Assembly (NCBI GenBank): GCA_030916945.1
Contig: JAUPVS010000001.1
Coordinates: forward strand, 2,138 to 66,137
Direction: 5' to 3'
Length of the DNA: 64,000 nt
Source: Patescibacteria group bacterium
GTDB taxonomy: Bacteria > Patescibacteriota > Saccharimonadia > Saccharimonadales > JAUPVS01
The notes beneath the pieces were generated by a model. It saw only the letters and a program-made list of their open reading frames with translations. It searched no databases and had not been told where the DNA came from. Positions 11,990-52,420 of the stretch are shown here, piece by piece. The first letter of the stretch is position 1. Each line of letters starts with the position of its first letter. A program made the position numbers and the translations under genes.

Positions 11990-12556
11990 ATGAATCCAAA
12001 CGATGTCGTCACTCAAGCCAAAACCAAGTTCGCCAATACTATTACTCACTTCGAAGAAGAACTAAAAAAACTGCGGACTGGTCGCGCTCATGCCGGTATG
12101 CTCGATGGTTTAATCGTAACAGCTTACGGCACGCCGATGCCGCTTAACCAAGTAGCTAGTGTTAGTGCGCCCGAGGCTCAGCTACTTCAGATTACCCCGT
12201 TTGATCCCAGCAGTAACATCGAAGCCATCTCGGCTGCTGTTCGTGACAACCAAAGCATGGGGCTGAACCCTAGCGATGACGGCCGCGTAGTACGCATTCC
12301 AATTCCGCCATTAAACGAAGAACGACGTCGTGACATAACCAAGCAGGTTGGTGCCAAGCTCGAAGAGTGCATGATTGCTATGCGTGGGACTCGGCACGAG
12401 GCTTTGGATACGCTAGCCGAAGCCAAGAAAGACAAAGATATCAGCGAAGACGAGGCCAAGCGGCTTGGTCAGCAGATTGAAGAGGCGATGACTCAGGCTA
12501 AGAGTCAGGCCGAAGCTACCGCTCGGGCCAAAGAACAAGAAATCATGACTGTTTAA
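11990..12556 (+). CDS. frr: Ribosome recycling factor
   Basis: 188 aa; LKKLRTGRAHAGMLD, IPIPPLNEERRRD; TAGAAT 6 nt upstream of the ATG. Confidence 0.95.
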   Translation: MNPNDVVTQAKTKFANTITHFEEELKKLRTGRAHAGMLDGLIVTAYGTPMPLNQVASVSAPEAQLLQITPFDPSSNIEAISAAVRDNQSMGLNPSDDGRVVRIPIPPLNEERRRDITKQVGAKLEECMIAMRGTRHEALDTLAEAKKDKDISEDEAKRLGQQIEEAMTQAKSQAEATARAKEQEIMTV

Positions 12557-21085: not shown

Positions 21086-22588
21086 ATGACAAATCTACGT
21101 TTTCCTTCAGCAGGGCCTGGCCCCGAAGCCGGTCCAGGTTCGCCTACTGTAAATTGGGACGAAGTTCAGATGCCCAAAGCGCCACCAGTACAAGCTGGTG
21201 CAGAGCCTGTCTCGACTGAGCAGACTCAAGAACAAGGTGAACCCATTTACTTGGTTGACGGTATTGGTATTGATATAAACGATGGTGTTGAAGTTAAAGC
21301 TCTTGCTGAAATTCTTGGCGTAACCCCCGAAGAGGTAAAAGACAGGTTAGAACAGGGTCTTCAGGCTGGTGAGCGAGGTGCGACCTTATGGAATCGTCTG
21401 ACTCCAGAGGCTCAAGAACGCCATCGCGCAGAAGCGAAAGCCGCAGCGAAATCTGCTGATGTAGACGAATCTACTCCAGAACCACTTTTGACCCGGTCTG
21501 TACTAACTCCGCCAGCTGCCCCTGCGCCGGCCCGCGATGTAAAGATGCGCGTGGTAGGTGCTAATGACGGCGAGACCCAGGTAATTCCAGCTGTCCCAAG
21601 CCACCCTGCAAAACGCGTAGTTAAGAAAACTCACCGCCCAGCGGCTACTCCAGCTACACCTGCAACACCAGATCTTGCTAAGCCAACTGACGGTCAAGCC
21701 ACCGGTACCGAAGCACCAAAGTTCTATAAACGAACCGACAACAAAGCCGCCGAAAAATTCTTCACCAAAAAGAAGCATCACGACAAGGTTCTCACCGAAG
21801 AGCAGTTTAGGGAATTCTTTGGTGACGATGCCATAGCTGCAGACCCTGATCTTAAAGCCGAATACCAATCTGTTCATCCGGTCTATCTGTACAGCCCAGA
21901 GGAACGATCGATGGGTTCTTATAGAGCCATACATGAGCGTGATAATGTGCTTGGTTGGCGTCGTGATACGATCCGCGATGAACATGGTAATAAGATAAAA
22001 TTACCACCAAGCCTAGTACCAGAAGACAGTATCACTCCCGATATTGATAATACGCCGGTAGTACGTCGCCGCAAACGTGACGTTTCTCCGACTGAACCAG
22101 CCGCCGAAATCCCCAAGATTCTAAGAGACGACGATGAACCAGCCGCCGAACCAGCGGAAGCAAAAGCTTCTGTTAGCGACACCCCAGAACCATTAGGCAG
22201 AGAAGATGTTTATGCCTACTTCGCCCAAAAAGAAAAAGAACTTGCCCAAAAAGAAGAAGAATTCCTGGCAAGAATGGAATCATTATTCGACTCAAAGATG
22301 GCCACATTTGATAGCCAGGTTGAAGCAGAAGTCCAACGCCGATTAGCTGAGCTTGGCGTACAAGTTGCTGGCAATCCGCAGGTAGCTCCTGAGGTAACTG
22401 CTGCCCAGGCAGTTGTTGAACAGACTGCTGGCGCAGAAAACGATGCTGATTCTGCAGAGACGACCGCGGCAAGTAAAGCTACAGAAAAACGCCGTCGGCA
22501 ACTAGTACGAGCTGCTAAAGTCGCTGGTGTTGCCGCCATTGCCGGTATGGGTGTGGCCGTAGCCGCTGTTCGTCAGCACAACCGCTAA
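21086..22588 (+). CDS. Hypothetical tail-anchored, largely disordered Pro/Ala/Glu-rich protein
   Basis: 500 aa; single C-terminal TM (VAGVAAIAGMGVAVAAV) preceded by KRRRQLVRAAK; coiled-coil segment near residue 380; atypical codon usage (6 AGR and 4 ATA codons in frame). Confidence 0.65.
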   Translation: MTNLRFPSAGPGPEAGPGSPTVNWDEVQMPKAPPVQAGAEPVSTEQTQEQGEPIYLVDGIGIDINDGVEVKALAEILGVTPEEVKDRLEQGLQAGERGATLWNRLTPEAQERHRAEAKAAAKSADVDESTPEPLLTRSVLTPPAAPAPARDVKMRVVGANDGETQVIPAVPSHPAKRVVKKTHRPAATPATPATPDLAKPTDGQATGTEAPKFYKRTDNKAAEKFFTKKKHHDKVLTEEQFREFFGDDAIAADPDLKAEYQSVHPVYLYSPEERSMGSYRAIHERDNVLGWRRDTIRDEHGNKIKLPPSLVPEDSITPDIDNTPVVRRRKRDVSPTEPAAEIPKILRDDDEPAAEPAEAKASVSDTPEPLGREDVYAYFAQKEKELAQKEEEFLARMESLFDSKMATFDSQVEAEVQRRLAELGVQVAGNPQVAPEVTAAQAVVEQTAGAENDADSAETTAASKATEKRRRQLVRAAKVAGVAAIAGMGVAVAAVRQHNR

Positions 22589-40878: not shown

Positions 40879-42045
40879 CTACTTCCTTATTAGTACTACG
40901 AGTTCACGGCCAACCACTTGGCCTGGGCGATAATAGACTAGGTCTGTATTGCCTGCGTGAACAAAACTCATCCGAGTATACCCTAAATCCTCGAGAGAAT
41001 CAAGGGTAGGGAGGTGCAAAATGCCATTTTTGGTAATCCAGGCTGGAACCGCCAAGCAGGCCCGAAAGCCGGGCTGAGTCTGGCGGGCCAGGTTTTTAAG
41101 GAATTTACGGTGAATCGTGTCGACATCACGCCGCACCTGACCGAGGATTTCGGCGGTTGGTTCGGCCGAGAAAGGTCGTCCCAGATAGGTTTCGCCGGCG
41201 ACCACGTCAAAGGGCTTGGACCACTGGTGGTCGGTGGCATCGCCCTCTTCAAGAGCTACTGTGCCCGAAAGTGTATATTTTTTCGCCAGCCAGTCGAGGT
41301 TGGTGCGCGAATAGTCGATCATGCGTGGTTCTAAGTCGCTGCCGTATGCATTATGGCCGTCGAGTAGGGCTTCTTGCAAAACTACGCCGGTACCGCAGAA
41401 GGGGTCCAAGACGGTGCCGGTATCGGTAGCGGCTAGGTTAACAATAATTTGAGCTAGCTTGGGTGGTAGCATGCCAACTCGGGCGTCACGCTTGGGGCGG
41501 GCTTGGTCGCGGGCGGCGTAGGCGTTGATGTCTTGTACGTTGGTGACTTGGGCCAGTAGGACGCCGGTGCCATCTTTGGCGACAATGAACTCCAAACCGG
41601 TGGGGCCGGTTAGCTGGTTGTGCAATGTTTGGGCGCTGTTGAGGTCGGGCGTGGTGTTGGGCACGACGCGCACCGAGCGGCCGGCTTTTTTGATGGCCTT
41701 TTTAACTTCTAGGGCGCTACGGTTGATTTCGGCGACGCTGGCATCCAGGCCATAGACGTTAAAGCCGAGGCGGATTTTTCCTTCTGGAATATATTGCAGG
41801 TGATCGGGAATGGTTTTGGCGATGTAACGCACGACTGATTGCCAGGAAGTGTTATTGAGACGGGTCAGGAGTTTGGCGAGCTTAACGGTGCCGCCAAGGC
41901 GGTCAAAGTTGATACTGACCGGGTCGACATCAAGCAATGCCACCTGGGCACTGACCCGGTGCAGGGCGGGAGCACCGTAGAGGCTTTCGAGTTCTGCCAA
42001 GCCCAGGGCGGGCTGGCGGCCTAAAATTACAACTGACTGATTCAT
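40879..42045 (-). CDS. SAM-dependent RNA methyltransferase, Trm11/UPF0020-like
   Basis: RPKRDARVGMLPPKLAQIIVNLA and VLDPFCGTGVVLQEA motifs. The position where DPPY is expected reads GETY (residues 284-287). Confidence 0.6.
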   Translation of the reverse strand: MNQSVVILGRQPALGLAELESLYGAPALHRVSAQVALLDVDPVSINFDRLGGTVKLAKLLTRLNNTSWQSVVRYIAKTIPDHLQYIPEGKIRLGFNVYGLDASVAEINRSALEVKKAIKKAGRSVRVVPNTTPDLNSAQTLHNQLTGPTGLEFIVAKDGTGVLLAQVTNVQDINAYAARDQARPKRDARVGMLPPKLAQIIVNLAATDTGTVLDPFCGTGVVLQEALLDGHNAYGSDLEPRMIDYSRTNLDWLAKKYTLSGTVALEEGDATDHQWSKPFDVVAGETYLGRPFSAEPTAEILGQVRRDVDTIHRKFLKNLARQTQPGFRACLAVPAWITKNGILHLPTLDSLEDLGYTRMSFVHAGNTDLVYYRPGQVVGRELVVLIRK

Positions 42046-42089
42046 TTAGCTACAGTATAGCGCGTTTTTGTGGGGTATAATGATTGCAA

Positions 42090-43136
42090 ATGAGCGATGC
42101 TGACAATAAGAAGCGCTGGAAACTGATTCTCAACCTGGTAACAGTTGGGGCGTTGCTGGCGTTATGTTATGTTTTGCGTGACCAAATTCTGGAAACCATT
42201 CAGAACGCCACCCGGGTAAATGCCTATGCCTTGCTGTTGATTATCCCGATTGAGCTGTGGAATTATGATGCCTATGCTCGAATGTATCGTTATCTGTTTG
42301 GTATTTTGGGAACTAAGGTGCGTTACCGCGAGATGTACAAGGTGGCACTTGAGCTTAATTTGGTAAACAACGTTTTCCCAAGTGGCGGTGTGTCCGGCTT
42401 TTCTTACTTTGGGGTGCGTATGAAGCAGCTCGAGGTGTCGACCGGTAAGGCGACACTGGTGCAGACGATGAAGTTCATCCTGTTGTTTACTAGTTTTGAA
42501 GTGTTGATTATCGTTGGCTTGATAATGTTAGCGATTGGCGGGCAGGCTAACAACTTTGTGCTGTTAATTGGTGGCTCAATCGCCACCTTTTTGTTTGTTG
42601 GAACACTGGGCGCGGCCTTTATCATTGGTAGTGAACGACGTATTAATAGCTTCTTTACCTATATAACACGGGTAGTGAACCGGGTTATCCATGTAGTGCG
42701 GCCTAAGCATCCCGAAACAATAAATATTGCCCGCGTTCAGGCCACCTTTAAAGACTTGCATGAAAATTACATCATTATTCGCAGTGACTATAAGCAATTA
42801 TTGGGTCCAGCCTTGTGCGCCTTGCTGGCTAACACCACCGAGATCGCGGCGATTTACGTGGTTTACATTGCCTTTGGGCAGTGGGTCAACCCGGGGGCGG
42901 TCATCTTGGCTTACGCTGTGGCTAACTTTGCCGGTATGATTTCGGTGTTGCCAGGCGGCGTCGGTATCTACGAAGCCTTGATGACTGGTACTTTGGCGGC
43001 GGCTGGTGTGCCGGCCTCGGTGAGCATTCCGGTAACCGTGATGTACCGCGTGATCAACATTACCTTGCAACTAATCCCAGGTTATTACTTCTACCATAAG
43101 GCGCTCCGACACGAGGGCCCGCCCAAACCGGCATGA
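42090..43136 (+). CDS. Polytopic membrane protein, flippase-like / LPG-synthase-TM (UPF0104-like)
   Basis: About 8 TM; LPGGVGIYEA-type motif. ATG 42090 lies 8 nt after TATAAT; the ORF track starts at TTG 42084. Confidence 0.55.
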   Translation: MSDADNKKRWKLILNLVTVGALLALCYVLRDQILETIQNATRVNAYALLLIIPIELWNYDAYARMYRYLFGILGTKVRYREMYKVALELNLVNNVFPSGGVSGFSYFGVRMKQLEVSTGKATLVQTMKFILLFTSFEVLIIVGLIMLAIGGQANNFVLLIGGSIATFLFVGTLGAAFIIGSERRINSFFTYITRVVNRVIHVVRPKHPETINIARVQATFKDLHENYIIIRSDYKQLLGPALCALLANTTEIAAIYVVYIAFGQWVNPGAVILAYAVANFAGMISVLPGGVGIYEALMTGTLAAAGVPASVSIPVTVMYRVINITLQLIPGYYFYHKALRHEGPPKPA

Positions 43137-44236
43137 CCGACGTCATCTTAAGTGTGTCCGATTTTGTAGGGGTGCTGAACCAAACCCTGGAAAATGCCTA
43201 CCCGAATGTCGTGATAGTGGGTGAGCTGGCCAACTTTAAGGTTAGTAAGAACCGCTGGGTGTATTTTGATCTAAAAGATGAGTATGCCAGCGTGCGCTTT
43301 TTTGGAACCGTCTACCAGCTGCCTGGGCCGCTAGAAGATGGCATGATGTTGCAGGTCCGCGGCAACCCGCGATTGCATCCGCAGTTTGGTTTTAGCGTGA
43401 CGATTGTGAATTTGCAGCCAGTTGGCGAGGGTTCTTTAAAGAAGGCCGCCGCGCTGTTGCAGGCCAAGCTGACGGCCGAGGGCTTGTTTGACGACAGCCG
43501 CAAGCGACCGTTGCCGTATTTACCAGAGCGGGTTGGCTTGATTACCTCGGGCGAGTCGGCGGCCTATGCCGATTTTGTAAAGATTATGAACGAACGCTGG
43601 GGCGGGGTAGACATGCAACTGGCTGATGTTCAGGTACAGGGCGAGCAAGCTCCGGCGCAGATTGTGCGCGCCATTGAGTACTTTAATGCTCATGCCCAAC
43701 CACCCGAGGTGCTGATCATCACTCGTGGCGGTGGCTCGGCCGAAGATTTGGCAGCTTTTAGCACCGAACAAGTTACCAGAGCGGTGGCGGCTAGCCGGAT
43801 TCCTACCATGGTGGCAATCGGTCACGAAGTTGACTTGAGTTTGGCCGAACTAGCCGCCGATCAACGCGCCAGTACGCCGAGTAATGCTGCTCAACTACTG
43901 GTGCCCGATAAAAAGCAGGAAAGAACCCACCTAAAAGCCAAGGCCGAGCAGCTGGGCTACTTGTTGCAGCAGCCACTGGTGGACGGTCGCCAACAGGTGT
44001 TGGCTAACCAAGACTGGCTACGCAAACGACTTTTACAGCTGTTTGAGCAAGCCGAACAAGATTTAGCGTCTCGCCGCCAGCTACTACAAGCCCTGAGTCC
44101 GCAGCAGGTCTTACGACGCGGCTATGCCGTGGTGCGTCGGGAAGGTAAGCCAGTAACAACTGCCAAGCAATTAAAACCAGCCGACAAAATCACCATCCAG
44201 TTTAGGGATGGCGACAGCGCAGCCACCATTAATTGA
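43133..44236 (+). CDS. xseA: Exodeoxyribonuclease VII large subunit
   Basis: N-terminal OB fold (VIVGELANFKVSKNRWVYFDLKD), ITRGGGSAEDL, GHEVD motifs; ATGA overlap with the upstream gene. Confidence 0.9.
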   Translation: MTDVILSVSDFVGVLNQTLENAYPNVVIVGELANFKVSKNRWVYFDLKDEYASVRFFGTVYQLPGPLEDGMMLQVRGNPRLHPQFGFSVTIVNLQPVGEGSLKKAAALLQAKLTAEGLFDDSRKRPLPYLPERVGLITSGESAAYADFVKIMNERWGGVDMQLADVQVQGEQAPAQIVRAIEYFNAHAQPPEVLIITRGGGSAEDLAAFSTEQVTRAVAASRIPTMVAIGHEVDLSLAELAADQRASTPSNAAQLLVPDKKQERTHLKAKAEQLGYLLQQPLVDGRQQVLANQDWLRKRLLQLFEQAEQDLASRRQLLQALSPQQVLRRGYAVVRREGKPVTTAKQLKPADKITIQFRDGDSAATIN

Positions 44237-44283
44237 TTACTTGCAACCATATGGTATAGTATGAATATTAAGGAGTTGTACTT

Positions 44284-44781
44284 ATGGAATTAACCGATAA
44301 CGCAGCTGGTGCGGCCATTGCCGAAGCCCGCCGCAAAGAAATTTTGAGACGTAGAGGCACGCCAGTTGAGCTGGTACGCCGACTATTTAAAAGCCGACCA
44401 GCGCCGGAAGGCCATGACCATGACGAAGGTTATATCATCGATGTTAAGCTTGCCGAGGGTACGGTTACTATTGACGGCGTTCCTGTAGAAGCCCATTTGG
44501 AACTAGATGATCATTGTGACGGTGTGACACCCATAGTAGTAAATTTACGCATTGGCAACTATGGTCCTGATGGAACCAGACATTATCTTGGTTCGGTGGT
44601 AAACCCGGACCTAGACGTGGAAACCGATGAGGATAAACAAATGGTTTACGTGCCACGACATGATCCTTACTACCGCGGGCCACACGAATCTTTACATGAG
44701 CAGCAACCACTTGACAGTGATAGTCAGATGAATTTGTACAGTCTTCTAAGCGATGCATTGATGCACCCGGCTACCCAGTAA
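44284..44781 (+). CDS. Hypothetical acidic protein inserted between xseA and xseB
   Basis: 165 aa; strong AAGGAG SD; atypical codons (3 AGA, 1 ATA, 4 CTA). No recognisable motif. Confidence 0.6.
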   Translation: MELTDNAAGAAIAEARRKEILRRRGTPVELVRRLFKSRPAPEGHDHDEGYIIDVKLAEGTVTIDGVPVEAHLELDDHCDGVTPIVVNLRIGNYGPDGTRHYLGSVVNPDLDVETDEDKQMVYVPRHDPYYRGPHESLHEQQPLDSDSQMNLYSLLSDALMHPATQ

Positions 44782-44814
44782 CATTTACGCAACCTTTCGA
44801 CTATACTGTTAGCT

Positions 44815-45021
44815 ATGGCTAAACAATCTTATAAAACTCTGCAAGCTCAACTAGACGCTGTTTTAACCGAAATGCAGTCTGATGACATTGATGTCGAGCG
44901 GGCACTGGAGTTATATGCCGACGGGCAGAAGATACTGGCCGAGCTCGAGGCCTATTTAAAGACGGCCGAAAACAAGGTTCAAAAGATTAAGGCCGACTGG
45001 ACCACGCCAGCCGCCTCATGA
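44815..45021 (+). CDS. xseB: Exodeoxyribonuclease VII small subunit
   Basis: 68 aa helical protein; LDAVLTEMQSDDIDVERALELYADGQKILAELEAYL pattern; TATACT 7 nt upstream of the ATG. Confidence 0.85.
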   Translation: MAKQSYKTLQAQLDAVLTEMQSDDIDVERALELYADGQKILAELEAYLKTAENKVQKIKADWTTPAAS

Positions 45022-45512
45022 ATCCGGTTGTCCTGACGGCCACGGTTATCTTCTTCATTTTTGCCTTTGTGATTTTGTTTGGGGCGCCCTATTTGCCAAC
45101 CATGAAGAAGCAGTCCGAAGAGGCTTTGGATATGTTGGCGTTGAAGCCAGGCCAAACCATGCTCGAACTGGGCTGTGGCGATGGGCGAGTGGCCAAGGCG
45201 GCGGCGCGGCGTGGCCTGAAGGTGGTGGGGTACGAGCTAAACCCGATTTTAGCCCTGATCGCCTGGCTGCAGACCTTAAAATACAGGGGTCAGGTAAAAA
45301 TTGTGTGGGGTAATTATTGGCGCCAAGATTGGCCCGACTGCGACGGGATATTCGTATTCTTGCTTGATAAATATATGAAAAAGTTGGATAAAAAAATTGT
45401 CCAAAAAAAGCAGCAGCAGGCTAAGCCAATCCGGCTTTTAAGCTACACATTTTTGGTGCCAGGGCGCAAAACAAGTGCTCAAAAGGGTGCTTTATTCTTG
45501 TATAAATACTAA
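45018..45512 (+). CDS. Class I SAM-dependent methyltransferase with N-terminal TM segment
   Basis: LELGCGDGRVA motif I; ATGA overlap with xseB. Confidence 0.7.
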   Translation: MNPVVLTATVIFFIFAFVILFGAPYLPTMKKQSEEALDMLALKPGQTMLELGCGDGRVAKAAARRGLKVVGYELNPILALIAWLQTLKYRGQVKIVWGNYWRQDWPDCDGIFVFLLDKYMKKLDKKIVQKKQQQAKPIRLLSYTFLVPGRKTSAQKGALFLYKY

Positions 45513-45524
45513 TTCTCGTTTAAC

Positions 45525-46196
45525 ATGAGCGGTATGAAACAACTCAATCAACGTGGTCATATGGACCCACTTTTGATTCCTCTTATTATTGCTGTGGTTT
45601 TCTTTGTAGCGGCCGGAAGTTTTGGCATCTGGGCCTTTATTAGTCGCCAGGATTACAAGAATAACAGTGACCAAAAAGCCGCCGCCGCGGTGGTAGTGGC
45701 CGAAGAAAAGACATCTAGCAAAAAAGATAATGAGTTTTTAGAAAAAGAGAAGCAACCCTACAAGCTGTATGAAGGGCCGAGTGCCTACGGTAGCTTAGTT
45801 GTCAGCTATCCAAAAACCTGGAGCGCTTATATTAGCGAAAAGACGACTGGTTCGACACCGCTTGATGCTTTCTTCCACCCGGGTTTTGTGCCAGCGGTTG
45901 ATGGCAACCCGGCTTACGCCTTACGCATCCAGGTGGTTGATCAGTCTTACGCCACGGTTCTGAAGTCGTTTGATTCATTTGTAAAATCGGGCAAAGTCAC
46001 GGCCGCCGCTTATGTGCCGCCCCAGGCTCCAACTATAACTGGAGTGCGCTTAGAAGGCGACATCGTGCCAAACAAGAAGGGTGCCATGATTTTACTGCCG
46101 ATCCGCGACAAAACGCTTAAGATTTGGGTAGAATCGCCCGACTTTGTAAAAGACCTCGATACTCATATTTTGCCCAATTATAAGTTCAGCCAGTAA
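45525..46196 (+). CDS. Hypothetical membrane-anchored extracytoplasmic protein
   Basis: One N-terminal TM (LLIPLIIAVVFFVAAGSFGIWAFI), then a soluble domain of about 170 aa. Alternative starts at 45534 and 45561. Confidence 0.6.
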   Translation: MSGMKQLNQRGHMDPLLIPLIIAVVFFVAAGSFGIWAFISRQDYKNNSDQKAAAAVVVAEEKTSSKKDNEFLEKEKQPYKLYEGPSAYGSLVVSYPKTWSAYISEKTTGSTPLDAFFHPGFVPAVDGNPAYALRIQVVDQSYATVLKSFDSFVKSGKVTAAAYVPPQAPTITGVRLEGDIVPNKKGAMILLPIRDKTLKIWVESPDFVKDLDTHILPNYKFSQ

Positions 46197-46240
46197 AAGT
46201 TTTTGCTATACTACCTGCAAGTAAGGCGGGTAAGAGGGGT

Positions 46241-46627
46241 ATGGCCAATATATTATTGTTAGAACCGGATGCAGGGCTGGCAGACAGCTACGCGCAGGCC
46301 TTTGCGGAGGCTGATCATCAGGTATTTTGGCGGACCGACGCCCAGGCGGCATTGGCGGTAATCGACGACCACGCCCCAGCCTTAGTAGTGCTAGAATTTC
46401 ACTTGCCCAAACACAACGGCGTAGAGTTTTTGTACGAAATTAGATCGTACCCGGACTGCGATGACATACCAGTGCTGCTGCACACCAACGTGCCCCAAGA
46501 CCACCCCGGCATTGGCCGTGACTACTGGCCGCAGCTGGGCATCCATGACTACTTATACAAGCCCGAAACCAGCTTGGATGAGCTGGTTAAGCGGGCGCTT
46601 GGCCTGATGACTCCGGCTGGCGTATGA
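46241..46627 (+). CDS. Atypical stand-alone receiver-like protein (Glu at phospho-acceptor position)
   Basis: Receiver fold pattern ILLLEPD ... LVVLEFHLPKHNG ... VLLHT ... YLYKP. The Asp normally found in the LLD.MP motif is Glu. Confidence 0.65.
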   Translation: MANILLLEPDAGLADSYAQAFAEADHQVFWRTDAQAALAVIDDHAPALVVLEFHLPKHNGVEFLYEIRSYPDCDDIPVLLHTNVPQDHPGIGRDYWPQLGIHDYLYKPETSLDELVKRALGLMTPAGV

Positions 46628-47325
46628 ACCCCAGCCGTAACCAGATTGTGACCCAGGGGATTGTGTTGGCCCGGACCAATTTTGGCGAAGCAGACCGCAT
46701 TATTACCATGCTAACGCCCGATCACGGTAAGGTTCGATTAATTGCCAAGGGCGTGCGCAAGATAAAAAGCAAACTGGCCGGTGGCATTGAACTGTTTAGC
46801 GTTAGCCAGATTACCTACTTGCCGGGCAAGAGCGAAATCCACACCCTTATTTCGTCGCGCCTGCAAAAACACTACGGCAACATTGTGCACGACATCGGTC
46901 GCACTATGCTGGGCTACGAGTTGCTGAAGCGCATCAACCGGGCCACCGAAGACGCCACCGAGAACGAGTATTTTGAACTGTTAGAAAGAACCTTGCAGGC
47001 GTTAGATGGGGGATTGTCGGAAGGCCTGCTAGAGCTGTGGTTCGACGCCCAGTTGCTACAAATCGCTGGTTTGCAGCCCAATCTAGCCAGCGATGCCGCC
47101 GGTGTTAAGCTAACGGCCGACCAGCGCTACAGTTTTGATTTTGACGGCATGTGCTTTGCGCCGGCCGACCAAGGCTTGCTGGGCGCTGACCACATTAAGC
47201 TGTTGCGCCTGGTGTTTGGTTTGCGTGACCCAGCCCGCCTGAGCGTCTTGGCAGATGCCGAAAAGGTGGTGGGGCCGTGCCGGCAATTGGTTCAAAGCAT
47301 CCGCCAACAGCATATCCGTGTCTAG
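46624..47325 (+). CDS. recO: DNA repair protein RecO
   Basis: OB-fold N-terminus (GIVLARTNFGEADRIITMLTPDHGKVRLIAKGVRK); ATGA overlap with the receiver-like gene. Confidence 0.85.
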   Translation: MNPSRNQIVTQGIVLARTNFGEADRIITMLTPDHGKVRLIAKGVRKIKSKLAGGIELFSVSQITYLPGKSEIHTLISSRLQKHYGNIVHDIGRTMLGYELLKRINRATEDATENEYFELLERTLQALDGGLSEGLLELWFDAQLLQIAGLQPNLASDAAGVKLTADQRYSFDFDGMCFAPADQGLLGADHIKLLRLVFGLRDPARLSVLADAEKVVGPCRQLVQSIRQQHIRV

Positions 47326-47370
47326 CCAACCCTAGTATTTAGAGTAAAAAAGTTGTACAATATGCGGATT

Positions 47371-47877
47371 ATGGGTTTGCATAGTGTTAAACAGGATGTT
47401 GGAGCTCGTTTACGCGAGATTAATTTGATGCGCATTGATAAGGCGTTAGATGCTCTAGAGCCAGACAGCCGTCAATTTGACGATGTAGTTCGCTTGCCAC
47501 TTTTACAGAACTGTTTGTGTGTGGGATTTATTTCTGTCGAGAACCCGGACCGGAAGTTTACACTCCGAGGCATGGCTCGTCTAACAGTACAGAAGGCTAC
47601 AGATGGCGCTACGGTTGTGGTCGACTCAATCCATGATCAGACAGGACAACCGATAAAGCCACCGACGATTGCTTTTCGTGATGCTAATCTTGGCATCGAA
47701 GACCACCCGGCAGTGCAGGGCTATGACGGTTTTAAGGTAACCATATCGCCAGAAGAAGAGCGACTATGGGGAATGGTTGGTAATTTCTGCATCCCAGTAG
47801 TACCGCCTAACGCTATCGAAGTTGAAGCATTCCTGAGCCCCTGTATAGGCGCTCTAGAACACCGCAGCCGTACGTAA
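47371..47877 (+). CDS. Hypothetical protein
   Basis: ORF track starts at TTG 47353. ATG 47371 lies 9 nt after TACAAT (47356-47361). Atypical codons (3 ATA, 4 GGA). No motif recognised. Confidence 0.55.
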   Translation: MGLHSVKQDVGARLREINLMRIDKALDALEPDSRQFDDVVRLPLLQNCLCVGFISVENPDRKFTLRGMARLTVQKATDGATVVVDSIHDQTGQPIKPPTIAFRDANLGIEDHPAVQGYDGFKVTISPEEERLWGMVGNFCIPVVPPNAIEVEAFLSPCIGALEHRSRT

Positions 47878-47896
47878 TCTGTTATAATACGGCGCA

Positions 47897-49204
47897 ATGA
47901 GTGATAAAAAAGTTAGTCTTGATGACATTGTCAGTTTATGTAAACGCCGTGGCTTTATCTACCAGGGTTCCGAAGTCTATGGTGGCCTAGCCGGAACCTG
48001 GGATTATGGTCCACTAGGACTAACACTTAAGCGCAACATCATGAACCTATGGTGGAAGACCTTTGTTGATGATAGAGAAGACATGTACGGCGTTGACGCC
48101 GCCATTCTTATGAACCAAAAAGTCTGGCAGGCCAGCGGTCACGTCGACACCTTTACCGATCCGTTAGTGGAGTGCAGCGAGTGTAAGTCACGCTTCCGCG
48201 AAGACCAGATCGATACCGCCAAGTGCCCAACTTGCGGCACGGCCGATTCTTTTGCCGAAGCCCGACAGTTCAATATGATGTTCAAAACTAACGTCGGTCC
48301 AGTTGATGACGAAAGTTCGGTCAGTTATCTTCGCCCCGAAACCGCCCAGGGTATCTTTACCAACTTCAAGAATGTGGTGGACAGCTTCTACCCAGATTTG
48401 CCGTTTGGTATTGCCCAGCAGGGTAAGGCATTTCGTAACGAAATCAGCCCGCGCGACTTTGTGTTTCGTTCACGCGAGTTCGAACAGATGGAAATTGAGT
48501 ATTTCATCGATCCCAAAGATTGGGAAAAGATTTTTGAGACCTGGGTTAACGACATCGAAGCTTTCTTGGAACAGCTTGGTTTGCCTAAAACTAGTGTTCA
48601 CAAACTAGAAGTGCCTAACGAAGACCGCGCCCACTACAGCAAACGAACCATCGACTTTGAGTTCGACTTTCCGATTGGCCGCAAAGAACTTTTAGGCTTG
48701 GCCTACCGCACCGATTTTGACCTCATGAACATCCAAAATAACAGTGGTAAAAGCATGGATTATCGGCCGAAAGATGGCAGCCCAGCTTTGGTGCCACACG
48801 TCATTGAGCCTAGTTTTGGTGTCGAGCGCACGCTGATGGCCGTTCTTACCAGTGCTTACACCCAAGACGAAGTGAACGGTGAGGAGCGTAGCTATCTCAA
48901 ATTACCGGTTCATTTGGCTCCAGTCCGTGTGGCCGTCTCGCCACTGTTAAAGAACAAACCAGAACTGGTCGCCAAGGCGCGCGAAGTCTACGCCATGCTT
49001 AAAAAAGAATATGGCAATGTTATGTGGGACGATAATGGCAACATTGGTAAGCGCTATCGACGCCAAGACGAAATTGGGACGCCGTACTGTGTGGTGGTAG
49101 ATTTTGATTCTTTAGAAGATGATTCGGTGACGGTACGCCACCGCGATACCACCAAGCAGGAACGGGTCAAGCTGGCGGAGCTGGTTGCTCGCGTAAAGGA
49201 GTAG
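47897..49204 (+). CDS. glyQS: Glycyl-tRNA synthetase, dimeric (alpha2) type
   Basis: Class II motifs (YLRPETAQGIF, FRNEISPR, GVERT), C-terminal anticodon-binding domain; TGtTATAAT 8 nt upstream of the ATG. Confidence 0.95.
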   Translation: MSDKKVSLDDIVSLCKRRGFIYQGSEVYGGLAGTWDYGPLGLTLKRNIMNLWWKTFVDDREDMYGVDAAILMNQKVWQASGHVDTFTDPLVECSECKSRFREDQIDTAKCPTCGTADSFAEARQFNMMFKTNVGPVDDESSVSYLRPETAQGIFTNFKNVVDSFYPDLPFGIAQQGKAFRNEISPRDFVFRSREFEQMEIEYFIDPKDWEKIFETWVNDIEAFLEQLGLPKTSVHKLEVPNEDRAHYSKRTIDFEFDFPIGRKELLGLAYRTDFDLMNIQNNSGKSMDYRPKDGSPALVPHVIEPSFGVERTLMAVLTSAYTQDEVNGEERSYLKLPVHLAPVRVAVSPLLKNKPELVAKAREVYAMLKKEYGNVMWDDNGNIGKRYRRQDEIGTPYCVVVDFDSLEDDSVTVRHRDTTKQERVKLAELVARVKE

Positions 49205-49206
49205 AT

Positions 49207-49905
49207 ATGCCCGACCCTTTAAAAGGATTTACACCGCAAGCCATCGCCTGGGACTTGGATGGTACGATTCTGGACAGCTTTAACATCTACATGGCGGTAA
49301 ATCGTGATGTCGCCCAGACCTTGGGGTTGGACGAACCGAGCGAGGAACTGGCTCGAAAGAACTATCATGGACTGCTCGGCGACTCAATCAAAGCCGCCTA
49401 CGGCGATGCCTTTGGTGACACTGATATTGACGAATACATCAGGCACTTTCTAGAAAAGCAAAGCGATCACTTTATTGAGGCCGAACAACATTTGCTAAAA
49501 GACGCCGTCCGGCTGTCGGCTCAAGCCGCCGCAAAAGGCATCCCGCAGGTGATTGTAACCAATCGCGATCACGAAGGGCGTGGTCATGGCAGCCCGCGCA
49601 GCATTGTCAGTAACACTAGCTTGGTTGATCATATCGACGAAATCATTTGCGGTGACGAAGGCAAGGGTTTTCGTAAGCCCGATCCGGCCGTTCTGGGCGA
49701 CCTGCTGGAACGCTGGCAGGTGGATCCAACCAAGCTGCTGGTAATTGGCGACCAACACGTTGATGCCCAATTTGCCCTTAACCTGAACGCCAAAGCAGTA
49801 ATTGTCTGTCGCGATGGTCCCGAATTCATGCATTCACATCTGCTCGACGACGGCTGGCAAGACCACGTTGCCGTGGTCGCCAGCTTGGATGAGGTGAAAC
49901 TCTAG
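49207..49905 (+). CDS. HAD-superfamily hydrolase
   Basis: WDLDGTILDS motif I, VTNR motif II, KPDP, GDQHVD motif IV. Confidence 0.75.
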   Translation: MPDPLKGFTPQAIAWDLDGTILDSFNIYMAVNRDVAQTLGLDEPSEELARKNYHGLLGDSIKAAYGDAFGDTDIDEYIRHFLEKQSDHFIEAEQHLLKDAVRLSAQAAAKGIPQVIVTNRDHEGRGHGSPRSIVSNTSLVDHIDEIICGDEGKGFRKPDPAVLGDLLERWQVDPTKLLVIGDQHVDAQFALNLNAKAVIVCRDGPEFMHSHLLDDGWQDHVAVVASLDEVKL

Positions 49906-49909
49906 GCTA

Positions 49910-50416
49910 ATGAAGCGCGTTGCCATAATTGGCTCACCGGGTGTGGGTAAGACTACCTTTAGCCGCCGACTACAGGAAAAAACCGGTTTACCGCTGATTC
50001 ATCTTGATTACTACTACCATCAAACCAAGCATGGCTACTACGATGACCGAGATAAATGGATTAAAAAGGTCGAACAGCTTATTAAGCCCGATCGCTGGAT
50101 AGTTGAGGGGAACTACAACTCATCCATGCCGCAACGCTGCGCCCGCGCCGACACCATCTTCTTTTTTGATCTACCACGTCGGGTTGCGCTGCGCGGGGTT
50201 ATTAAACGACGCATCCAGTACCGCAACAAGTTACGCGAAGAGATGCCCAGCGAGTGGAAAGAGAAGGCCAACTGGGGTTTTCTGAAATATGTCTGGAATT
50301 TTCGTCGCGATGTCCGCCCCAACACAGTCGAAATAATCTCAAAACTTGGCCCCAAAACAACCTTGATTACTTTCAAATCCAGAAAACAGATCAGGGATTA
50401 TCTAGCCAAACTCTAA
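49910..50416 (+). CDS. P-loop NTPase, adenylate-kinase-like (topology-modulation-protein-like)
   Basis: Walker A IIGSPGVGKTT at the N-terminus; 168 aa. Confidence 0.6.
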   Translation: MKRVAIIGSPGVGKTTFSRRLQEKTGLPLIHLDYYYHQTKHGYYDDRDKWIKKVEQLIKPDRWIVEGNYNSSMPQRCARADTIFFFDLPRRVALRGVIKRRIQYRNKLREEMPSEWKEKANWGFLKYVWNFRRDVRPNTVEIISKLGPKTTLITFKSRKQIRDYLAKL

Positions 50417-50457
50417 AACCCTTGTGCTTGCAAAAACGCCGCGGCTTTGACAGGCTA
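50416..50457 (+). repeat. 42-nt conserved intergenic motif, copy 1
   Basis: aaaacccttgtgcttgcaaaaacgccgcggctttgacaggct; 38/42 identical to copy 2. Forms a 9-bp imperfect hairpin, 50426-50434 / 50446-50455. Confidence 0.8.
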
Positions 50458-50491
50458 GGGTAATAAGCGCAGGTGGATAAGGGAGTACGTC

Positions 50492-51184
50492 GTGGATGTT
50501 CCAGACCCAAGGCCAGACCAAGACCCATTCGAGGCTATAACTAAGGCTAGCCCCGAGGCTATTCGTTTGTGCGAGTATGTTTTTGCTTCGGCTGCCGATG
50601 ATTTAGCCGAACAGAACTTTAGGGAATCCAAGGACTTAAAGCGCGTCGTTGGCGAGAAGACCTTTCATTATGAAGACGACTCTTCGCTGACGATACTTTT
50701 TAGTGCCGCCAAGTTTAAAGAAGCAGACGAAGAGGAAGGTGACGCCTCTATGCGGTATATCAAATATACGGTGGAGATTACTCGTCAACGACCACGTGAA
50801 GACCAAGCCTACTGGCCTGAGTCGACAGGCAGGTGGAGCAGCGATGACGAAGACGAAGCTGACGATGATGACAGAGTTTTCGAAACCACCACGTCAGCCG
50901 AACATGGTGATGTCTGCCAAGAAGTCCACCGTTTTTATATAGACGATGAGGACTACATCCCGGTAAGCGAACTAATCTTTCAGTATATTGACGACAGAGG
51001 TGTGATTTTAGAAGAAATTGATGCCTTTGGTGCTTTTTCGGTCAGAGAACAGCAACTTAGCGCTAACGAAGCTGACGATGACTCCTTGCACGAGTTCGAA
51101 GAATGGCTGTCGAGGTCGTTTAGCCAAGAAGAACAGGTCAAGATATACTCTGTTCTGGAACGATTAAAAATAAATGTTGCGTAG
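50492..51184 (+). CDS. Hypothetical highly acidic protein (paralog 1)
   Basis: 230 aa with long Asp/Glu runs; GTG start; 7 AGR and 5 ATA codons. C-terminal helix FSQEEQVKIYSVLERLKI resembles that of the next gene. Confidence 0.6.
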   Translation: MDVPDPRPDQDPFEAITKASPEAIRLCEYVFASAADDLAEQNFRESKDLKRVVGEKTFHYEDDSSLTILFSAAKFKEADEEEGDASMRYIKYTVEITRQRPREDQAYWPESTGRWSSDDEDEADDDDRVFETTTSAEHGDVCQEVHRFYIDDEDYIPVSELIFQYIDDRGVILEEIDAFGAFSVREQQLSANEADDDSLHEFEEWLSRSFSQEEQVKIYSVLERLKINVA

Positions 51185-51197
51185 CTACCGAAACCAC

Positions 51198-51239
51198 AAA
51201 ACCCTTGTGCTTGCAAAAACGTCCGAGCTTTGACAGGCT
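51198..51239 (+). repeat. 42-nt conserved intergenic motif, copy 2
   Basis: aaaacccttgtgcttgcaaaaacgtccgagctttgacaggct. All 4 differences from copy 1 fall in the predicted hairpin loop. Confidence 0.8.
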
Positions 51240-51245
51240 TACTTT

Positions 51246-51956
51246 ATGGCTATTCCAGACGAACACTTTTTACCCGGTCCCGGTGTAGACCCTGATACAG
51301 AGGTGTACCCAAGTGTTGTAAAGGGCTTTATGAGGCATACGATTTGGCCAGCCGTCAACACTTTATGGGGTGGCGATTTCCTGACGGATTCACTGCCGGA
51401 TGAGTATTTGTCAATTGAGCGCACGGTAGTGGACCGAGTCAGTCGTGAGCCCAGCGCCATTTATCGACTGTTGGCAAATTGTGGCCTGGATGCTGACCTA
51501 GAAAGTGATGAAGAGATAGTAGTTCGCTCAGCTCAAATATTTGTGGTTGAGCACGTACCCGACGCCACAGCCGGACTATTGGTAGATATTAACCGACAAT
51601 ACAAAGCTCTGGATAGGAAATCTGGCTTTCCGCTTGAACCGGTCGATGGCCTGTCGGCTTGGCTAAATAAAGAGTACACCTTTAGCGACGCCAAAGACCA
51701 GCCATTTCATGTCATGCCGTTTCTGGAGCTCCGCGCCAGTGATGATTTAGAGACACTCTGGGACCAAGAAACCCAAGATGAATTGCGGATTGACAGCCTT
51801 GAAGCCAAGGCCAAGTCGGCGGACCAAGAAGACCCCGAGCGACAGGATGAAGAGTACCTGTTGTTTATGCAATTCGAAGACGAGCTGCCACCAATCTTTA
51901 CAACCAAAGATTTGCGAGCGGTGTGCACGGCACTCGAAACTCTAAAACTATTGTAG
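51246..51956 (+). CDS. Hypothetical highly acidic protein (paralog 2)
   Basis: 236 aa, Asp/Glu rich; C-terminal FTTKDLRAVCTALETLKL aligns without gaps to the paralog 1 tail. Confidence 0.6.
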   Translation: MAIPDEHFLPGPGVDPDTEVYPSVVKGFMRHTIWPAVNTLWGGDFLTDSLPDEYLSIERTVVDRVSREPSAIYRLLANCGLDADLESDEEIVVRSAQIFVVEHVPDATAGLLVDINRQYKALDRKSGFPLEPVDGLSAWLNKEYTFSDAKDQPFHVMPFLELRASDDLETLWDQETQDELRIDSLEAKAKSADQEDPERQDEEYLLFMQFEDELPPIFTTKDLRAVCTALETLKLL

Positions 51957-51979
51957 TAGGTAGTATCATACATATCAGT

Positions 51980-52420
51980 ATGCCGACCATCTACGATGAA
52001 TTTACGCCTGATCTCACGCCCCAGCAGATGCTGGAGCTGGGTGTGTTTGGTGGCGCTTACTTTAATGAAGAAGAACGGGCCGAGTTTCCGCCAGAATGGT
52101 TTGCCAAAGCCCATCTGAGTACCGAAGGTCCGACCAAAGACTGTAACTACTTTGGGGTAATGGCCAGCCAGTCCCACCAAGAATGGGCCGAGAAGGGCTG
52201 GTTGAGCCAAGAAGATCCCTTGGGCTGGTTCCAGTGGTATTGTCGCTACACCATGGGTCGTCGACTGCCCCAAGAAGACGAACGCCAAATTAAACGCTGG
52301 AAGGCGATGCGTCGCCATGTTGGGCAAATTACAAAGGCATGTCACCCCGGTGATGCCACTTGTCACACCAAGCAACGGCAGGCCTTGCTGCACTGGGCTT
52401 ACGACAGCCGCCAGCTCTAG
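51980..52420 (+). CDS. Conserved-looking hypothetical protein
   Basis: 146 aa from ATG 51980; GVFGGAYF and GWFQWYCRYTMGRRLPQEDERQIKRW segments look like a conserved domain that I cannot name. The ORF track start 51923 overlaps the previous gene. Confidence 0.55.
   Translation: MPTIYDEFTPDLTPQQMLELGVFGGAYFNEEERAEFPPEWFAKAHLSTEGPTKDCNYFGVMASQSHQEWAEKGWLSQEDPLGWFQWYCRYTMGRRLPQEDERQIKRWKAMRRHVGQITKACHPGDATCHTKQRQALLHWAYDSRQL

Follow-up and report, generated by a model that had tools for sequence, protein, structure and literature searches.

A duplicated and conserved 42-nt motif ahead of two acidic protein genes in a Saccharibacteria genome: a putative promoter region in a recombination-prone islet

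What is the role of a 42-nt motif that occurs twice, nearly unchanged, in a Saccharibacteria genome, each time directly ahead of a gene for a strongly acidic protein, and are the two genes that it precedes related to each other? The motif lies in the window analyzed here, a stretch of 64,000 nucleotides (positions 2,138 to 66,137 of contig JAUPVS010000001.1, assembly GCA_030916945.1), to which all coordinates refer unless another contig is named; features are on the plus strand unless stated otherwise. The two open reading frames (ORFs), ORF1 (50492..51184, 230 amino acids, GTG start, isoelectric point 4.20, net charge -36) and ORF2 (51246..51956, 236 amino acids, ATG start, no Shine-Dalgarno sequence, isoelectric point 4.26, net charge -28), have the positions and the extreme acidity ascribed to them in the first-pass annotation, which considered the motif to be an RNA hairpin or an inverted-repeat operator and the proteins to be orphan paralogs. 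Both proteins have identical counterparts in a metagenome-assembled genome labelled "Patescibacteria group bacterium". The comparisons described here suggest a different answer, with about an even chance of being correct: the motif would be the selected core of a duplicated 58-nt segment and the putative promoter region of each acidic gene, possibly under regulation.

The two copies of the core, CGCCGCGG at 50415-50456 and CGTCCGAG at 51198-51239 (offset 783), are identical at 38/42 positions, with the four differences clustered centrally, and no match as good was obtained in any of 100 shuffles. A repeat search extends the similarity leftward to 58 nt (50399..50456 and 51182..51239, 48/58 identical), which is the best direct repeat of the 64-kb window. 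The left 16 nt of copy 1 are the 3' end of an AAA_18 gene, and copy 2 begins at the ORF1 stop codon. To the right, the similarity breaks off after ...GACAGGCT, with 3/14 identical positions beyond, and the bases that follow the core are AGGGTAA or TACTTTA. The 42-nt repeat of the first-pass annotation is therefore real, and so is the range given there for copy 2, whereas its range for copy 1 and its stem in copy 2 are each displaced by one base.

The motif is confined to this locus. Both copies in the window are those at ORF1 and ORF2. In a scan of species-representative genomes, the invariant 5' 20-mer is found once in the whole of a related genome (GCA_964627095.1, uncultured Candidatus Saccharibacteria, the nearest to the window apart from its own; the locus is denoted L001 below), upstream of the ORF1 ortholog, and a metagenome scan for the motif identifies only contig WBZX01007190.1 (L012), at the same locus. 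Two further matches to the 20-mer in the former scan, in Radiobacillus and Aerosakkonema, are chance hits in unrelated bacteria; two viral matches to a shorter pattern are dismissed as chance as well, because they lie inside a 410-amino-acid ORF and the flanking conserved bases are missing. A common dispersed repeat unrelated to these genes, which had been named beforehand as the finding that would speak against a special role of the motif, is at odds with so few copies at a single locus across the genome and metagenome scans. The L001 copy is identical to copy 1 at 41/42 positions, the single difference falling in the spacer of the putative promoter described below, while 57-58% of the synonymous sites in the adjacent genes differ between the window and L001 (proportion of differing synonymous sites, pS, 0.58 for the HAD hydrolase gene and 0.57 for ORF1). 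Conservation falls to chance level directly 3' of the core. Given that 41/42 positions are kept while some 57% of the flanking synonymous sites differ, the motif core is judged to be under purifying selection and to be locus-specific.

Closer inspection of the core reveals a possible promoter at the same position in both copies. The putative ORF1 promoter (50428..50456) consists of a -35 hexamer TTGCAA (50428-33), a 17-nt spacer with the dinucleotide TG at 50448-49, and a -10-like hexamer CAGGCT (50451-56); the putative ORF2 promoter (51211..51239) has TTGCAA at 51211-16, a 17-nt spacer, TG at 51231-32 and CAGGCT at 51234-39. TTGCAA is scored at 5/6 against the -35 consensus TTGACA, and the same hexamer is present at the apparent promoters of the genes at 21086 and 44284. 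The 17-nt spacer, which is within the accepted range of 16-18 nt, and the TG at -15/-14 are found in all four distinct copies of the motif, and the four differences between the copies in the window, as well as the one in L001, all fall in the putative spacer. Recognition would thus depend on TTGCAA and on an extended -10 element TG-n-CAGGCT in which the anchor bases A(-11) and T(-7) are retained, with only the centre of the spacer free to vary. The ORF2 ATG is located 6 nt past CAGGCT, so that the ORF2 mRNA would be leaderless. The ORF1 GTG is located 35 nt past this hexamer, behind a Shine-Dalgarno sequence AAGGGAG (50479..50485, 6 nt before the GTG and conserved in L001), and this sequence would lie in an ORF1 mRNA leader of about 29 nt, with transcription predicted from the geometry of the elements to start near 50463. 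Since conservation continues past the hexamers, to AAAACCCTTGTG upstream and to GCTTTGA before the -10 element, a regulator may bind the motif as well, plausibly at a site that overlaps the promoter. The first-pass annotation was right that TTGACA is not followed by a -10 element at 16-18 nt, but it dismissed a simple promoter too early, having tried only TTGACA as the -35 hexamer and overlooked the combination of TTGCAA, 17 nt and TG-n-CAGGCT. Promoters of the sigma-54, sigma-32, sigma-B and sigma-28 types and minus-strand promoters were compared by eye with consensus sequences, and none of these fits.

Several observations weigh against a promoter. CAGGCT matches TATAAT at 2/6 positions (A2 and T6 only), whereas the other apparent -10 elements in the window match at 4-6 of 6; a scan with the consensus promoter makes no call at the motif. 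Nearly all of the 42 nt are conserved, which is beyond the needs of a promoter alone. The genes from 42084 to 52420 are all on the same strand with short gaps, so that read-through is possible and the motif could act as RNA. Furthermore, the four distinct copies known come from three closely related lineages.

To put the motif in the context of this genome, every upstream region of the window was listed and compared for promoter geometry. Most of the intergenic gaps contain a clear TAnAAT-type -10 element, and TTGCAA is a recurrent -35 hexamer. The gene at 21086 has the arrangement ACTTGCAAAA-17-TGCTAGTAT-7-ATG, which is near the form of the motif. The -10 element ends 6-8 nt before the ATG in seven genes (starts at 11990, 20547, 21086, 25619, 42090 and 53102, and the minus-strand gene 40879-42045), about one quarter of the genes with an upstream gap, which implies that leaderless mRNAs are likely to be frequent in this Saccharibacteria genome. 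A literature search on leaderless mRNAs and promoters in Saccharibacteria turned up no published work that maps promoters or transcription starts in the group. Distant members of the ORF1 family (described below) also have promoter-like sequences directly upstream: TGCTTGCAA-17-TAGTGT-9-ATG at locus L018, TTGCAA-17-TACAGT-11-ATG at L020, TATAAT-8-ATG at L015, and TGCTACAAT at L017. If the promoter reading is true, the motif is an unusual Saccharibacteria promoter, compact and strongly conserved, in which a good -35 hexamer and an extended -10 element are combined with a degenerate -10 hexamer, and it drives two genes, one of them leaderless and the other with a leader.

The alternative that the motif acts as RNA has to be weighed against the same features. 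Under this explanation, transcription from upstream runs through the motif, and the 9-bp bulged hairpin of the motif is an mRNA processing site, a stabilizer or a translational element. The stem described in the first-pass annotation (50426..50455 in copy 1 and 51209..51238 in copy 2; 9 pairs with a bulged A, one of the pairs being G-U) is indeed possible on paper in each of the four distinct copies, and the differences are limited to the central bases, that is, to the loop, as had been stated. This pattern does not separate the two models, however, because a promoter spacer is equally unconstrained. Read-through is plausible given the co-oriented genes and short gaps, and the hairpin ends 7 nt ahead of an ATG that lacks a Shine-Dalgarno sequence. 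The folding energy of -5.6 kcal/mol is, nevertheless, no better than that of shuffled sequences: 13% (copy 1) and 36% (copy 2) of the shuffled 42-mers fold as well, the z-scores for the 63-nt contexts are -0.98 for copy 1, +0.63 for copy 2 and, as a third value, +0.76, and the minimum-free-energy structure predicted for copy 2 in this context does not include the stem. All 9/9 pairs are invariant in the four distinct copies, so that covariation is zero and uninformative. Rfam yields nothing at E <= 10 over the motif (49800-52200) and nothing at gathering score over the window, and no tRNA genes were found. Nor does the hairpin account for the 11 invariant nucleotides that precede the stem, and a complementary 3' arm is present in none of the upstream regions of the ORF1-family genes at L015, L017, L018 and L020, even though L018 retains TGCTTGCAA. 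An RNA element is, with these results, a rather unlikely explanation. A dimeric regulator that co-controls both genes through an imperfect 30-bp dyad GCnTGnnAAA...TTTnnCAnGC, either alone or overlapping a promoter, would account for the conservation past the promoter hexamers; the dyad symmetry is visible on inspection, and the same element stands ahead of both genes. The "bulged A", however, puts the half-sites one base out of register, a poor arrangement for a symmetric dimer bound to duplex DNA. None of the genes nearby encodes a DNA-binding regulator, and the adjacent response regulator matches a receiver-domain family only. Sites are also few, with two in the 64-kb window and one in the related genome. 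Such an operator is unlikely to be the whole explanation, but one that overlaps the promoter is possible.

Two other explanations would deny the motif a role in the expression of the acidic genes. The first is that the motif is a functionless scar, left when duplication or illegitimate recombination joined an arrangement "AAA_18-motif-ORF1" to an arrangement "AAA_18-motif-ORF2". In copy 2, the left 16 nt are similar to the last bases of the AAA_18 gene (TAG CTA CCG AAA CCA CAA vs TAT CTA GCC AAA CTC TAA), and arrangements with a single acidic gene occur at L012 and L001. This resemblance is weak, with 6/9 identical positions in the far-left 9 nt (p ~0.01 by our own estimate), the conservation is at chance directly 3' of the core, and a core that is 41/42 identical between genomes differing at about 57% of the flanking synonymous sites is hence selected; the conservation argument already disfavours a scar, and we consider it very improbable. 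The other explanation takes the motif for an intrinsic terminator that serves the gene ahead of it, or for an element of mobile or cassette type (a repetitive extragenic palindrome, a miniature inverted-repeat transposable element or an integron attC site), which would fit the start of the motif 0-14 nt past the stop codons of three different genes (AAA_18, ORF1 and, in L001, HAD) and the variation of the surrounding gene content between genomes. Neither a U-tract nor a G+C-rich stem is present, and the scan for terminators made no call at the motif. With regard to mobility, the motif is not dispersed, the viral matches being chance matches within a 410-amino-acid ORF; no GTTRRRY or RYYYAAC core sites of an attC are visible in the sequence; and the Pfam listing for genes called in the ~20-kb L001 and L003 loci contains no integrase or transposase family. 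A terminator or mobile element thus has hardly any probability left. Altogether, the RNA-hairpin idea finds no support, and a duplicated, possibly regulated promoter region within a recombination-prone islet appears to be the best reading, its probability being close to one half.

That the locus is a variable islet follows from the comparison of gene orders. In the window, the order is RecO, a 174-amino-acid hypothetical protein, GlyRS, HAD, AAA_18, motif, ORF1, motif, ORF2, a 146-amino-acid gene, DNA_alkylation, GH1 and MraZ. In L001, HAD is followed by the motif, an ORF1 ortholog (70% amino acid identity), a NUDIX gene on the opposite strand and the 146-amino-acid gene; AAA_18, ORF2 and the second motif are missing. 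In L012, the order is AAA_18, motif and an ORF2 ortholog (60% amino acid identity), with ORF1 missing. The L012 motif combines the left flank and central bases of copy 1 with the right flank of copy 2. Thus, either ORF1 or ORF2 can stand alone behind the motif, and the stretch from HAD to the 146-amino-acid gene, with its different gene content in L001 and L012, is a small variable islet. Its conserved left border is the HAD hydrolase gene (49207..49905), and its right border is the conserved 146-amino-acid gene (51980..52420), with the similarity to L001 resuming at 51964. Within the islet, the AAA_18 gene (49910..50416) encodes a P-loop kinase-like protein that resembles PRK08118, "DNA topology modulation protein" (E 2.8e-47, below cut-off). 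The NUDIX gene of L001 (10742-11185, opposite strand) occupies the place where the window has ORF2. The 3' end of the L012 contig (~5690-5826) turns G+C-rich and loses the similarity to ORF2, and is probably an assembly chimera.

Sequence divergence changes sharply across the locus. Between the window and L012, the synonymous divergence (dS) is 0.18-0.41 for AAA_18, HAD and GlyRS and 1.66 for ORF2, and the change occurs at the 3' edge of the motif. Positive selection on a protein cannot account for raised divergence at synonymous sites. The two ORF2 alleles are far older than the genes that flank them, a pattern indicative of recombinational replacement. The single-gene arrangements, together with the abrupt divergence at the 3' edge, show the motif to be also the junction at which recombination reshuffled the downstream genes. 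The resemblance of the left part of copy 2 to the end of AAA_18, weak as it is by the same estimate, suggests that copy 2 could have arisen by the joining of an "AAA_18-motif-gene" junction behind ORF1. The locus is, accordingly, of interest as a sharp recombination mosaic, with synonymous divergence of about 0.2-0.4 on one side of the motif and 1.7 on the other, within an otherwise conserved housekeeping synteny.

Mosaicism is also seen upstream of the islet. Between the window and L001, the identity is 94-98% for RecO, GH1 and the 146-amino-acid gene, 63% for GlyRS and 41% for the 174-amino-acid hypothetical protein. The gene of this last protein (47353-47877), between RecO and GlyRS, is hypervariable, with 41% amino acid identity to L001 while RecO has 98%; its region gives no blastn alignment to L012 or L001, and the protein has no match in Pfam, PHROGs, PADLOC or NCBIfam. 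The GlyRS gene (47897-49204) is itself a mosaic, with 63% amino acid identity to L001 (64.5% nucleotide identity in the 5' part and ~85% in the 3' part) and 99% to L012, which suggests partial recombinational replacement of this essential gene.

ORF1 belongs to a small family. A word-indexed search started with ORF1 identifies a single homolog, the protein with 70% amino acid identity in L001. An exhaustive HMMER search with a profile made from these two sequences detects 22 proteins at E <= 1e-3 (the 70% ortholog and 21 others), 9 of these at E <= 1e-10. Most of the family members are 210-277 amino acids long, and most are aligned over nearly the full length, with four conserved blocks (LEPAAD..AGE.F; RP.....YWP; EVW.FYIDD..Y.PRK..R.EYYD; SFSE.D...I.G.L..LG) and a variable acidic insert between the RP.....YWP and EVW blocks. 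No Pfam domain was detected in any member. The family gene is located in the synteny RecO - GlyRS ... DNA_alkylation - GH1 at L001, L015, L017 and L022. The five multi-gene contigs that provide context, two of which are annotated as Saccharibacteria or Saccharimonadales, contain one member each, in this neighbourhood or beside its genes. This shared synteny, with one member per locus, argues for vertical inheritance rather than for a mobile cassette. ORF1 is thus best described, on the strength of these alignments and contexts, as a member of an unnamed, divergent acidic family of Saccharibacteria-type contigs, and the definition of this previously unnamed family with a syntenic position is one outcome of the present work. 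Genes for NYN (RNase-like) and PIF1 helicase proteins adjoin the family gene at L017 (4440-7936), L018 (47-1880) and L022 (7001-9905), sometimes together with CYTH; this association is loose but recurrent and might hint at a nucleic-acid-related role. On a contig from JGI 3300048101 (P0013), a 210-amino-acid member is directly preceded, with a 2-nt gap, by an unannotated gene that also encodes 210 amino acids (genes 1685-2317 and 2320-2952), and these could be a tandem pair like ORF1 and ORF2.

ORF2 is a different case. Its only known homolog is the L012 copy (60% amino acid identity), and no relatives were found at other loci, so that the "orphan" label of the first-pass annotation holds for ORF2, apart from this one homolog, and fails for ORF1 with its 22 family proteins. 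The claim that the two proteins are paralogs does not survive direct comparison. BLASTP aligns the C-terminal 27 residues of ORF1 and ORF2 with an E-value of 0.14; hhalign of the ORF1 family profile against the ORF2 pair gives a probability of 0.4% and an E-value of 0.15, again over the C-terminal 27 amino acids only; the local alignment score (z = 1.9) is reached by 50/1000 shuffles (p = 0.05); and the hidden Markov model of the ORF1 family scores 3 bits on ORF2, which ranks 8 among 1000 shuffles. None of these four results is significant, and ORF2 is, by these measures, a separate, lineage-restricted gene. The similar length, similar charge and shared pattern of the C-terminal helix, F-[ST]-x-x-[DE]...L-E-x-L-K, are weak hints that an ancient common origin of the two genes is possible. 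In addition, the first seven codons (50492-50512 and 51246-51266) have 14/21 nucleotides in common, including the exact match TTCCAGAC (M-x-[V/I]-P-D). The L012 allele of ORF2 lacks TTCCAGAC and reads TTTCAGGC. The likeness of these first codons may be accidental, or it may reflect a common origin or gene conversion.

Both ORFs are real and fast-evolving genes under purifying selection, the ratios of nonsynonymous to synonymous divergence being 0.18 for ORF1 and 0.15 for ORF2. It had been stated that both use codons that housekeeping genes here lack, which is wrong: every codon of ORF1 and ORF2 also occurs among 57 other genes, and the G+C content at third codon positions is 0.47 and 0.50, compared with a window mean of 0.553 +/- 0.063, that is, about one standard deviation lower. 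With respect to function, the earlier observation that neither protein belongs to a recognizable family stands, as no characterized family was matched: there are no matches for ORF1 or ORF2 in Pfam, PHROGs, PADLOC, NCBIfam, a PDB profile search or a tblastn search of phage genomes. The AlphaFold2 models are of low confidence, with a predicted local distance difference test score of 36.7 for ORF2 and of 52.4 for ORF1 (predicted template modelling score 0.49), and Foldseek detects nothing in the PDB at E <= 0.001 with them; with the corresponding low confidence, ORF1 is predicted to be a mixed alpha/beta protein. A more far-reaching proposal is that the 58-nt element is a promoter-anchored expression-and-exchange site, at the 3' edge of which recombination swaps unrelated acidic genes (of ORF1 or ORF2 type) among Saccharibacteria strains, the proteins being mimics of nucleic acids or inhibitors of host or phage nucleic-acid enzymes; we regard this as quite improbable.

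The feature is of an ordinary kind and leaves the current understanding unchanged; the main effect of the analysis is to correct the first reading with regard to the hairpin, the paralogs and the full orphan status. Several known systems can be compared with the locus. Acidic DNA mimics and anti-restriction proteins, such as ArdA and Ocr, have counterparts here in the isoelectric points of about 4.2, charges of -28 to -36 and Asp/Glu runs of ORF1 and ORF2, in their rapid evolution within a variable region, and in the proximity of the family to NYN and PIF1 genes in distant genomes. The likeness is, however, one of composition only, given that no sequence or fold match to such proteins was found in Pfam, PHROGs, PADLOC, NCBIfam, PDB or phage genomes and that ORF1 is predicted to be mixed alpha/beta. 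Integron cassettes with attC sites also combine an imperfect inverted repeat containing an extrahelical base with adjoining promoter-poor ORFs and a strain-variable gene content, but they differ from this locus, where no core sites or, at the flanking loci, integrase are seen, the repeat is located 5' of each gene with none after the last one, and a single locus is involved.

More instructive parallels concern promoters. The motif shares with the leaderless promoters of the sigma-70 extended -10 (TGn) type the TTGCAA hexamer, the 17-nt spacer, the TG at -15/-14 and the bases A(-11) and T(-7), as well as, in the case of ORF2, an ATG 6 nt after the -10 element, a spacing that recurs at the seven other genes of the window listed above, and the lack of a Shine-Dalgarno sequence. 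As a putative promoter, it departs from them in its -10 hexamer, CAGGCT, which matches at 2/6 positions, and in the conservation of about 40 nt instead of two hexamers. Finally, the locus can be compared with tandem arrays in which duplicated promoter or 5' regions mediate gene gain and loss. A simple crossover would have to be placed within the final 12 nt of the repeat, because the L012 motif has the central bases of copy 1, and the downstream genes, ORF1 and ORF2, are not detectably homologous, unlike those of such arrays; nevertheless, as in these arrays, the 58-nt direct repeat flanks ORF1, and a natural variant, L012, lacks exactly ORF1 and one copy of the repeat.

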